A DNA stretch of 60,531 bases from Candidatus Scatovivens sp. (GTDB lineage Bacteria; Bacillota; Clostridia; TANB77; CAG-508). Below are positions 50,011 through 56,625 of the stretch, piece after piece. The translations under genes were made by a program, and so were the position numbers. The notes under the pieces were generated by a model that saw nothing but the letters and a program-made list of their open reading frames with translations, ran no database searches and was not told where the DNA came from. The stretch lies in NCBI GenBank assembly GCA_045646345.1, contig JAZRKN010000002.1, positions 1 through 60,531 on the forward strand, in the 5' to 3' direction. Numbering within the stretch: the first letter of the stretch is position 1; every line of letters begins with the position of its first letter.

Positions 50011-50039
50011 TTGACATAACTTGCATACCGTATTATAAT
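50011..50039 (+). promoter_or_regulatory. Perfect-consensus sigma-A promoter
   Basis: TTGACA-17-TATAAT. Confidence 0.85.
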
Positions 50040-50087
50040 ATATAAACCAAAATGGCTAGCTAGCCAAGCTTAAAGGAGGCGATTATT

Positions 50088-52103
50088 TTGGCATTTGAAC
50101 ATTTACAATTGAATCAAGCAGCAACAGAAATGTTTAACGACATTTCAGCAGAAATGCGGAAACGCAAAATCAATGTTTTAAACATCCCTCTTCTTCTTTG
50201 GGGTGTACTAACTGCCAGTATGGAGGACTCAGCATATAGTGCTCTCGAAAACTACCTCTATACCGACACAGAACTTCCTTCGAATGAAGTTGAAGATGCT
50301 ATTTCTTTGATGATTTCTATTTCTGAACCTAAATCCGATTCTAAATCTCAAAACAAATCCGGAAAAGGTTCTAAGAAAAGCAAAAAACTTAAGAAACAGC
50401 CTAATACAGAAACACTAGAAGAGTGTTCTGCAAAGAAAGAACTTGAAGAACCAACTACAAGTTACACTTTCTATGCTTCTGAAGGTAAGGAAATTAAGTT
50501 TGAAGTAAATCAAGATGTTGAAAAAGTCTTTGAAAAATTGTTGGAGATTGTTGCCAAGTATGAAATTACTGTTCTTGATCCCATTTACATTACTTGTGCA
50601 ATGTTTATGTGCGATTGTAACGATTTGAAGCATTTCTTCAAAGATATTGACGCAAACTATGATGATGCTAAATCTTATTTCCACGCCGACCGTATCATGG
50701 TATGCGGCGTAATTCCATTCCAGCTTGCAGGTTTCTTAAGTACCCTTAACGAGAAAATTGATGCAAAATCTCCGTGTGAAATTCTCGGAAGAGACAAAGA
50801 AGTCAAACAAATCTGGAACATCGCGTCTAAAAGAAACAAACGAAATGTAATCATCATCGGTGAACCCGGTGTTGGTAAATCCGCTTTAATTGAAAAACTT
50901 ACTCATGACATCAACAGTGGCAATTGTCCTGAAAAATTCAAAAATTTCAAAATTGTTGTCTTAGATGTCAACTCTCTTATTGCTGGTACAACATATCGTG
51001 GTCAAGCAGAAGAACGAATTAAAGATCTTATTCGTTTCTTGGAAAAAAATCATGATGTAATTCTTTTCGTTGATGAGGTTCATACAATGCTTGGTGCAGG
51101 TTCTTGTTTCGAAGGCGAAATGGACCTTGCTAATGCATTAAAACCAATCTTAGCTCGAGGAGATACAATCGTTATCGGCGCAACAACCGAAAGTGAATAT
51201 GAAAAGTATTTCAAAAAAGATGGTGCTCTCACTCGTCGTTTCGAAAAAGTAATTGTCAGAGAACCTATGGTACATGAAGTTTACCCTATGATTCAAAATA
51301 AGCTAGTTGAACTTAGCAAGTTTCATAATGTAAACATCACACGTGAAATTGTCGAATATGCAATTTTAATTGCAGGATGTTTTTCTTTTGATAAGAAAAA
51401 TCCTGATAAGACTTTGGACTTGATAGACCGTTCAATGGTCTCTGCCAATAACGCAAAAAAGACATATGTCGACAAAGAGTGTATCATCGAAAACTTTGAT
51501 GCTTACTTCGAAAAATGGGATAAGATGTCTGAGGATACCAGACGAGAAATAGCTTATCATGAGGCTGGTCACTACATTGTAGGAAAACTTTCTGACAAAC
51601 TCATTGATCTCCGCTGGCTTGCAGTCTCTATTATGCCTGCCGAAGATTATCTTGGAATAACTGTGCACGAATGTGACGAAGATGTCGTCCCTTATAAAAA
51701 TGCAAGTTATTACATTGATTTGATGGCATACTATTATGGTGGTCGTGTCGCAGAAGAAAAATTCAGACATGATTTTACTAGTGGTGCGTATGGAGACTTA
51801 GACTATGTAACTCGTCTTGCATCTACTTTTGTGACAAAATTCGGTATGGGAAATGACTCTATTGAAAACAGAGCATATCTCATTGGCGAAGAATATTCTA
51901 TGTTCACAGAGTCTTCAACCAACATGATAAATGATGAAATTAATCGAGTTACAAAAAAAGCTTACACTCGAGCCAAAGAAATCATCGATCAAAACATGGA
52001 TCTTTTGGAAGCTATTGTTGAAATTCTCATGGCAAACAAGATTGTCAGTGAAATCGAACTTGACAAGATTTGGAAAAGCGTTGTTGCAAAAAGAAACAAC
52101 TAA
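50088..52103 (+). CDS. Clp-type AAA+ ATPase fused to FtsH-type M41 metallopeptidase
   Basis: GRDKE, GEPGVGKS, AGTTYRG, LFVDEVH, IGATT, LTRRF, PDK.LDLID then AYHEAGH, GGRVAEE, SGAYGD, FGM; AAGGAGG RBS before TTG. Confidence 0.9.
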   Translation: MAFEHLQLNQAATEMFNDISAEMRKRKINVLNIPLLLWGVLTASMEDSAYSALENYLYTDTELPSNEVEDAISLMISISEPKSDSKSQNKSGKGSKKSKKLKKQPNTETLEECSAKKELEEPTTSYTFYASEGKEIKFEVNQDVEKVFEKLLEIVAKYEITVLDPIYITCAMFMCDCNDLKHFFKDIDANYDDAKSYFHADRIMVCGVIPFQLAGFLSTLNEKIDAKSPCEILGRDKEVKQIWNIASKRNKRNVIIIGEPGVGKSALIEKLTHDINSGNCPEKFKNFKIVVLDVNSLIAGTTYRGQAEERIKDLIRFLEKNHDVILFVDEVHTMLGAGSCFEGEMDLANALKPILARGDTIVIGATTESEYEKYFKKDGALTRRFEKVIVREPMVHEVYPMIQNKLVELSKFHNVNITREIVEYAILIAGCFSFDKKNPDKTLDLIDRSMVSANNAKKTYVDKECIIENFDAYFEKWDKMSEDTRREIAYHEAGHYIVGKLSDKLIDLRWLAVSIMPAEDYLGITVHECDEDVVPYKNASYYIDLMAYYYGGRVAEEKFRHDFTSGAYGDLDYVTRLASTFVTKFGMGNDSIENRAYLIGEEYSMFTESSTNMINDEINRVTKKAYTRAKEIIDQNMDLLEAIVEILMANKIVSEIELDKIWKSVVAKRNN

Positions 52104-52185: not shown

Positions 52186-52222
52186 AAAAAACCAATCAGA
52201 AGCAAATTCTGATTGGTTTTTT
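52186..52222. terminator. Bidirectional terminator
   Basis: aaaaaaccaatcagaa-gcaaa-ttctgattggtttttt. Confidence 0.88.
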
Positions 52223-54981: not shown

Positions 54982-56625
54982 TTAGTTTCTTCTGCCTCTT
55001 CCGACTCTCATCTTCTTAGGCTTTTGTCTGCCCTTTTTAGATTTTTTGGACTTTCTCTGATTCTTAGCCGCTTTTTTCTCTTTTTGGGCTTTTTTAGAAG
55101 CTTTGCTTTTGGATATTTGTTCAGCAGAAGCTTCTTTACCAAAAACGACACGACTTTCATTGATAAGTCCTGCAGGCATGTGTTTCACAACAAGTTTGGT
55201 ATTACGATCTTTCTTGTAACCCACTCGATAAAAACCAACCATGTGCTCTCTGTCGAGAATTCTCATATCCTGAACATTTGGGCATTCCTCTTCAACTGCA
55301 TCCTGGAAAATCTTTTTAGTTTCAGTTTCTCCATGATTAATTCCAAGGAATTTCACATTTGTAAAAAGATTAATGAGTCTTAGCAACTCATCTTGAGTTG
55401 CATGAGAAGATTTTTCTCGCGTTGTTTTCACAACAGCATTTTTTTGGTAAACATTGTTACCGATCTGAAGTTTGTCTGCTCTCTTGGCATCTAACAGTTT
55501 TCTTGCCAAGGTTTCTTCGGCCGCATAGCCAACCAGATGGATCAAACTATTAGGATGTTCCAAGAATAACGGAACATAGATTCTTGCAGGACCATTGGAT
55601 AACATACCCGATGTGGTAATCAGAATCTTCGGTACACCATCATTTAAGATGTTTTCCCTATTCTTAGGATCCACATAGATTAATCCTTTTGGAATAAAGT
55701 CACGATTAGGATTTCTCATGCTTTCCAAAACAGACCTATAAATATGCGTTGTTGTAATTCCCAAAGGACCATCAACACAAATCGCATATTCCTCAGGAAT
55801 CAAACCTTCGTCCTGAAGTTTTTTGAAATCATACAAGATTTCCTGCATTCTTGCTTGAGCAAATGCACCAATCAGGATATTCTGTCTGCGCTTAAAGGCT
55901 TCTAAGATATTGTCTCTAAAGCAGATTTTTATATCCTCTTTTCTTGTGCTACCGTACGTTGATTCACAGAACATTATCAGTTCCATGTTCCTGAACCACT
56001 TTGGAATCTCTCTTACTTTCTCGAAAGAATTTTCGAACTTAAAGTCTCCTGTAAACAAGAAGTTCATTGGGTTCATGTTTGGATAAGAACACTGCAGCAG
56101 AATCATTGCTGCCCCAAGAATGTGTCCGTTCTCCCAGAATGTAAGTTTTACACCCGGAAGAATCTCAATAGTCTTACGATACGGAATTCCTTCGCACATC
56201 TTCAATGTTTTGTCCACGTCTTCGATATGATACAACGCATGAAACTTATCTGCTTCATACGGATATCTCTCTTTCATTTCGCGAACATTTTCTTCCTGCT
56301 GCTCAGCTGAGTCTTTCAAAAATGGCCCAATAAGAGCTCTGGTCACCTCAGACATATAGATCTTATTCTTGTAGCCCTGTTTTACAGCCTTTGGCAGCAA
56401 GCCTGTGTGATCAATGTGATTATGAGTCACAATGATTGCATCAACATTTGATGGGTCGAAGTCATCAACATAGTTGAGATACCTGTAATCGATTTCTTGG
56501 AAATAACCGTAATCGATTAATACCCGATATTTAGTATTATCAGGTCTCTCAATAACGAGATACAGTCTTGAACCTGTAACTCCACTGTGGTAAGCTGTTA
56601 CATATGCTTTCAAAGCATCAGTCAT
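54982..56625 (-). CDS. MBL-fold beta-CASP ribonuclease with very basic C-terminal tail
   Basis: THNHIDH, GHILG, FTGD, ESTYG, SGML..G, SSHA, NHGE; higher GC than flanks. Confidence 0.9.
   Translation of the reverse strand: MTDALKAYVTAYHSGVTGSRLYLVIERPDNTKYRVLIDYGYFQEIDYRYLNYVDDFDPSNVDAIIVTHNHIDHTGLLPKAVKQGYKNKIYMSEVTRALIGPFLKDSAEQQEENVREMKERYPYEADKFHALYHIEDVDKTLKMCEGIPYRKTIEILPGVKLTFWENGHILGAAMILLQCSYPNMNPMNFLFTGDFKFENSFEKVREIPKWFRNMELIMFCESTYGSTRKEDIKICFRDNILEAFKRRQNILIGAFAQARMQEILYDFKKLQDEGLIPEEYAICVDGPLGITTTHIYRSVLESMRNPNRDFIPKGLIYVDPKNRENILNDGVPKILITTSGMLSNGPARIYVPLFLEHPNSLIHLVGYAAEETLARKLLDAKRADKLQIGNNVYQKNAVVKTTREKSSHATQDELLRLINLFTNVKFLGINHGETETKKIFQDAVEEECPNVQDMRILDREHMVGFYRVGYKKDRNTKLVVKHMPAGLINESRVVFGKEASAEQISKSKASKKAQKEKKAAKNQRKSKKSKKGRQKPKKMRVGRGRRN

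Follow-up and report, generated by a model that had tools for sequence, protein, structure and literature searches.

A predicted soluble protease uniting a Clp D1-type ATPase and an FtsH-type M41 peptidase in one order of gut Clostridia

Can a protease be built as one soluble chain from the ATPase module of one protein family and the zinc peptidase of another? The question is raised by an open reading frame of 671 amino acids with a TTG start at 50088..52103 on the plus strand of the window, the whole stretch of 60,531 nucleotides that was analysed (Candidatus Scatovivens sp., GCA_045646345.1, contig JAZRKN010000002.1), identified from its translation and from NCBIfam and Pfam matches. An earlier note, made from the letters alone, had read it as a one-component soluble protease; the results support this reading, with proteolysis itself a prediction from sequence.

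The motifs that the note had listed were found where it had placed them, including Walker A at 50859 and HEAGH at 51558-51572, and Pfam, NCBIfam, trees and structure model agree that a Clp D1 module is followed by an M41 domain in one chain. Pfam matches were AAA (residues 254-390), AAA_lid_9 (400-484) and Peptidase_M41 (480-660), the last scoring 109 bits against a cut-off of 29.9. The Clp D1-type AAA+ module (residues 207-447, 50706..51428, +), assigned by Pfam, NCBIfam, tree and structure match, contains Walker A (50859-50882), the pore loop GTTYRG (50985-51002), Walker B with D329 and E330, the arginine fingers R383 and R384 and the PDK of the lid. NCBIfam models of the ClpA/B/C type cover only about residues 213-454 (ClpA at 213-454, E 2e-67, below the whole-protein cut-off), and FtsH_fam (TIGR01241) matches 446-655 with a score of 98.9 against a cut-off of 600. 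The M41 zinc peptidase (residues 480-660, 51525..52067, +) carries the zinc-site residues H491, E492 and H495 of the HEAGH motif (51558-51572, +) and an Asp zinc ligand, D570 (51795-51797, +). No D2 (HCLR) AAA+ module is present, as M41 follows from residue 480 onwards and the chain is complete at 671, and the M domain found in 77/77 Clp proteins scored is also missing.

Of the four domains that the note had expected, AAA, AAA_lid_9 and Peptidase_M41 were matched and Pfam Clp_N was not: its four matches in the genome all lie outside the hybrid gene, and the N-domain was recognised by hhalign. Aligned to a profile of 43 Clp N-domains it matched over both repeats (98.5%, E 1.6e-15; reversed control 0.2%), which bears out the two Clp-N-like halves split by a K/S-rich linker that had been described. 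Repeat 1 (about residues 5-78, 50100..50321, +) was found with hhalign at 97.3% (E 2.3e-11) and has four helices in the model; repeat 2 (about residues 137-198, 50496..50681, +), found at 96.4% (E 1.3e-9), is preceded by a predicted beta-hairpin, and the two repeats match each other at 96.5%. Between them lies a K/S/E-rich insertion (residues 84-120, 50337..50447, +) that is predicted to be disordered (pLDDT <50) and falls in a gap relative to the ClpC profile. In the ESM Atlas, 29 of 30 N-domain matches were in the Clp_N set (score 0.94). No transmembrane helix was predicted, in agreement with the note: the maximum 19-residue hydropathy is 1.56, and 1.88 among the 120 homologs listed, compared with 2.3-2.7 in six full-length FtsH-type proteins. 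By these matches the protein is a single chain of a divergent Clp N-domain, a Clp D1 ATPase and an M41 peptidase, with no predicted membrane anchor.

The two halves differ in ancestry. Among 81 ATPase modules placed on a tree, the 26 from the family grouped with 43 Clp D1 modules and not with the 12 of FtsH (support 100/100), so that the AAA part stands where the note's reading would have it. Monophyly of the family was weak in this tree (37/39) and no Clp sequence stood out as donor; the D1 module is 38-44% identical to the three Clp D1 modules of the host. A second tree, of 83 M41 domains, united the 38 from the family in one clade (SH-aLRT 99) beside 45 of FtsH type, and a position of the M41 part as sister to the second FtsH of the order had a support of 24.

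Along the chain, resemblance to Clp holds up to residue 447 and resemblance to FtsH begins at 480, the residues in between being ambiguous. A first ungapped comparison placed the crossover at 448-452; this exact position was rejected, as scoring with the Clp post-M-domain segment included left residues 448-470 ambiguous (7.7 for that segment, 11.9 for FtsH), and the crossover is therefore placed no finer than residues 448-479 (51429..51524, +), where the model and alignments indicate a predicted continuous helix at 463-479. The note had assigned FtsH to a different AAA clade from Clp D1, which was mistaken: in the accessible part of PMC7568338 they are different subfamilies of the same classic clade, so the join falls between homologous lids and a swap of motors would be easier than the note had stated. 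In 72/72 members 52 residues separate the lid PD from HExxH, and this identical spacing points to one origin. Together the alignments suggest a single origin of the family, through a fusion within the homologous lid or immediately behind it.

A further possibility considered was that the gene is an artefact of assembly, or a recent fusion in decay. Shared words allow Clp genes to be joined wrongly, and one low-coverage contig (L195), in which a ClpC-like N-terminus is joined to the hybrid family at Walker A, is probably such an assembly join. The 120 homologs listed in the 90%-cluster search all have the Walker A, Walker B and HExxH patterns, however, and the junction is crossed without a break by one 1395-base contig of a different public DNA run. 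With the identical junction spacing and the purifying selection described below, these rule out an assembly chimera, and we give this explanation practically no credence.

Homologs with the same junction were found in number, as the earlier note's reading implies. A Clp-type ATPase and an M41 part occurred together in 112 of the 149 retrievable top representatives of 50%-identity clusters, and a junction profile matched in 53/201 genomes of the host's order, every match beginning in the Clp lid. Restricted to good-quality genomes the count was 45/176; three of the five families of the order were represented, and about three quarters of the order's genomes had no match. In a class-wide draw with 399 genomes scored, matches starting in the Clp lid came from the source genome and five genomes of the same order only, and the remaining listed matches started at profile position 30 or later, like the host's own FtsH. 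A phylum-wide draw gave none in 400 other genomes. With no more than 6-13 candidates per genome scored in these searches, absence here means not found in those searched. The hybrid is a conserved family within one order of gut Clostridia, TANB77, whose members are small, low-GC, uncultured gut genomes according to the accessible text of PMC11680825. Databases name its members only generically, as AAA family ATPase.

A mobile-element origin was rejected on the collections searched. No members were found among the phages of INPHARED or the plasmids of PLSDB, where the best matches were FtsH-like at about 30% identity or less; a junction scan of IMG/VR returned one locus, an FtsH, and no family member; and none of 80 viral Clp loci belonged to the family in a scan that covered 8 of 64 parts.

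The age of the gene was judged from its surroundings. Within the genus it occurs in 6/24 other genomes, with two copies in two of these, and in other genera it occupies other sites. The adjoining conserved gene, which we take to be ThiF-like, is also found beside the hybrid gene at seven further loci, of which six show no more than 55-67% identity. For close pairs the synonymous divergence of the hybrid gene tracked that of the neighbour (0.35 and 0.39; 0.47 and 0.42), and GC3 stays at 0.44-0.45. Synteny and divergence thus speak against a recent horizontal acquisition, and the note's proposal that the gene had been acquired as a unit did not hold as a recent event; the hybrid gene is an old, patchily kept resident of the order. 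Its composition is nevertheless higher in GC than its surroundings, as had been noted (GC 0.362 and GC3 0.30, against a GC3 of 0.08-0.12 in three flanking genes), and GC3 was above the neighbours' median at 84/93 homolog loci, which are not independent. It may have had an older origin in a higher-GC source.

Genome-wide, GC3 was at least 0.25 in 58/1084 open reading frames of at least 200 amino acids, most of the genome lying near 0.13. Promoter-like sites of at least 11/12 preceded 26 of the 58 high-GC3 frames and 115 of the 1026 others; some of the frames counted may be shadow frames. One further gene of this composition in the window is a metallo-beta-lactamase/beta-CASP gene at 54982-56625 on the minus strand (GC3 0.37, Lys/Arg-rich tail), and at another locus (L082) a similar-looking frame directly adjoins the hybrid gene.

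The transcription signals were those described in the note, a perfect promoter and a terminator of its own. A sigma-70/A consensus promoter matching at 12/12 positions (TTGACA-17-TATAAT, 50011..50039, +), the sole such site among 21 promoter sites found, recurs in its arrangement upstream of genus-level homologs, and a site of at least 11/12 was present at 79/93 homolog loci (loci not independent). A Shine-Dalgarno site AGGAGG (50074..50079, +) is conserved in homologs, and a terminator-like hairpin of 16 pairs (52186..52222, +) lies between the hybrid gene and its convergent neighbour. A 14-base palindrome 5' of the ribosome-binding site was set aside, as homologs do not keep it. Exact CIRCE and CtsR patterns of heat-shock operators had zero matches anywhere in the genome, so that their lack at this gene carries no weight. 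Short contigs within the hybrid gene were found in two metatranscriptome runs of one study, in which DNA carry-over is possible.

The host genome encodes three class I Clp ATPases, ClpP and two FtsH, and only partial Lon_C matches for Lon. With Clp ATPases, ClpP and FtsH already present, the hybrid would be an accessory protease. These same proteins are potential partners, and the hybrid could act only in mixed rings with host ClpC/ClpB or FtsH, or through an adaptor that activates it or recruits it to the membrane; adaptors bind ClpC-type N-domains in general. Against such dependence, a promoter and a terminator of its own flank the gene, none of its neighbours is shared from genus to genus, and the protein lacks the M domain common to the Clp proteins scored, so that we regard a partner-dependent enzyme as improbable. 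Downstream of one family member, a same-strand run of genes (L002:7598-13138) encodes what by look are presumably TelA-, phosphatase- and vWA-type stress proteins.

A monomer model was built with AlphaFold2 on a 72-sequence alignment (mean pLDDT 84.3, pTM 0.68). It shows two four-helix repeats parted by the disordered insert, then the ATPase, then the peptidase, and no membrane helix. The D1 module superposed on ClpC (9gi1) with a VIA Z of 26.9 and an rmsd of 2.2 A over 266 residues. ATPase and peptidase together matched apo-FtsH (3kds; Z 24.6, 402 residues, rmsd 5.5 A) and AFG3L2 (Z 23.0), and in the modelled monomer the ATPase is placed over the peptidase in an FtsH-like way. No solved structure covers both the Clp and the M41 parts at sequence level.

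The linker between them departs from FtsH. FtsH and YME1 strictly conserve an inter-domain glycine on which degradation depends, G521L abolishing it, according to the accessible part of 10.1101/189316. At the FtsH position this glycine was present in 12/12 FtsH and 1/72 family members, at either tested position in 0/111 representatives, and a nearby Gly was found in only 4/112; in 31/72 close relatives the residue before that position is Gly, and this protein has none there. The linker is four residues shorter than that of FtsH and is modelled as one helix. Separately, AAA+M41 proteins of about 500 amino acids, widespread in Bacillota (L253-L260, L267, L268), form a clade of their own (support 100) and have the hinge glycine one residue nearer to HExxH. 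The earlier note had been silent on the missing glycine, on the weaker D1 ring and on the roughly one fifth of clusters with a degenerate ATPase.

Ten residues were invariant in the 72 aligned members, K264, D329, E330, T366, R383 and R384 of the ATPase, which cover Walker A and B, sensor 1 and both Arg fingers, and H491, E492, H495 and D570 of the peptidase, and the pore residue was Tyr or Phe in 68/72. The ZnHis-His-Asp spacing equals that of YME1 H540/H544/D618 as given in the accessible part of 10.1101/189316. Selection was assessed on 19 sequence pairs, one of which was dropped as a chimeric contig; in the remaining 18 dN stayed below dS for all domains scored. The 7 pairs with an AAA dS >0.2 gave a dN/dS of 0.02-0.07 for AAA, 0.02-0.13 for M41 and 0.03-0.19 for the N-domain. 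The hybrid is under purifying selection, and the AAA module is its most constrained domain.

Among 107 full-length representatives (the 112 minus 5 fragments), ATPase motifs were kept in 85, of which 84 also kept the zinc site, and 22 had lost Walker A, Walker B, Arg-finger or pore motifs. All 22 keep HExxH and the Asp, and the 12 of them that were placed on the M41 tree are scattered over at least three places, one of them inside a 99-supported clade with intact members. The peptidase is thus never lost, and this keeps alive a second explanation, in which the protein is a zinc peptidase with D1 mainly as a nucleotide-gated assembly scaffold, cleaving peptides or unfolded tails without hydrolysis-driven threading. 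The missing hinge glycine and the minor part of D1 in the ClpA motor would fit it as well. Yet the majority of members keep the catalytic Glu, both Arg fingers and the pore aromatic across 29-77% overall identity, in the most constrained domain of the chain, and a pure scaffold would not need these residues; we hold this explanation to be unlikely, if a good deal less so than dependence on partners.

Variants were also seen at the level of whole domains. Shorter members of 460-580 amino acids (L128, P0234, P0240, P0248, P0269 and others), from genomes of the same order, combine a degenerate ATPase with an intact zinc site. P0130 (923 amino acids) has two tandem D1-type modules before its M41 domain, and P0209, P0210, P0236 and P0246 have tandem D1-type modules without a peptidase.

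The reading that we prefer, and consider probable, is a soluble ring-shaped ATP-dependent protease in which assembly through D1 takes the place of FtsH's membrane anchor. Hexamers would form under nucleotide control through D1, which would supply the assembly role that FtsH obtains from the membrane; the N-domain would capture substrates or adaptors, and the pore-loop tyrosine of D1 would thread chains into the M41 zinc chamber. In the accessible text of PMC5095350, YME1L without its transmembrane span forms no hexamers and degrades nothing, and a soluble hexameriser restores ATP-dependent proteolysis; that of PMC5540906 has nucleotide binding at NBD1 stabilising ClpB and ClpA hexamers. In ClpA, D2 accounts for 80-90% of hydrolysis and a variant with only D1 active fails on many substrates, as stated in the accessible part of PMC7568338. 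With D1 contributing under a fifth of ClpA hydrolysis and performing poorly alone, the hybrid is expected to be a weak unfoldase, a motor that may favour unfolded or low-stability proteins. The preferred reading is weakened by the loss of the hinge glycine, the minor-motor status of D1, the 22 degenerate ATPases and the patchy presence in the order.

The family offers a natural test of two points: whether degradation can run on a Clp D1 ring in the absence of D2, and whether substrate can be delivered to an M41 chamber that has no membrane anchor or lacks the hinge glycine, a residue thought essential. Being a single soluble chain of 671 amino acids, the protein can be expressed and assayed directly, and nature supplies control variants with a dead ATPase or with tandem D1 modules. 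For uncultured gut Clostridia it is a predicted protease that had gone unrecognised. The family is apparently undescribed: no published account of a Clp-N/D1/M41 architecture was found in a literature search that covered listings and the openings of abstracts outside subscription journals, and that could miss a brief reference in a survey of domain architectures.

A second soluble Clp/FtsH fusion was observed in Campylobacterota, with a Clp D2-type module (Pfam AAA_2) before an intact FtsH-type AAA and M41. Three examples, from genomes G1063, G1014 and G1045 among the top phylum-wide matches listed, lie at L351:1970-4744 (+), L352:967-3306 (-) and L353:964-4239 (-), each with Pfam AAA_2, AAA and M41; these fusions are 780-1092 amino acids long, have a maximum hydropathy of 0.96-1.22 and keep the hinge glycine. 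The ESM Atlas lists similar clusters from Campylobacterota, Pseudomonadota and Melainabacteria. On balance we lean towards a broader picture, in which a soluble M41 chamber would be both driven and assembled by a Clp D1 ring alone, the two being coupled without the hinge glycine, in a family that repeatedly shed ATP hydrolysis and kept proteolysis, while a second lineage independently became soluble through a Clp D2 ring set before an intact FtsH motor.

Compared with known systems, the hybrid resembles FtsH, YME1 and AFG3L2 in having a classic-clade AAA module directly over M41 in one chain, an HExxH and Asp zinc site and a similar modelled domain placement (Z 23-25), and differs in its Clp D1-type ATPase, the Clp N-domain in front, the absence of a transmembrane anchor and the shorter linker without hinge glycine. 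With the class I Clp/Hsp100 proteins ClpA, ClpB and ClpC it shares a two-repeat N-domain and a complete D1 module; it differs from them in lacking the M domain and the D2 ring, and with the latter any ClpP-docking loop, in carrying its own peptidase, and in an N-domain that is too divergent for Pfam Clp_N and interrupted by a disordered insert. Lon is likewise a soluble single chain of N-domain, AAA+ and protease, but its motor is of the HCLR clade and its Ser-Lys protease is not homologous to M41. By their defining features the candidate protease thus falls outside both FtsH and class I Clp, and its sequence and model suggest that it most likely works like a soluble FtsH. The nearest parallel in that respect is the engineered hexYME1L (PMC5095350, accessible part), an M41 AAA protease likewise soluble through a substitute for the transmembrane span, in which an artificial coiled coil is joined to the native YME1L motor, whereas in the hybrid the substitute is natural and the motor itself has been replaced.
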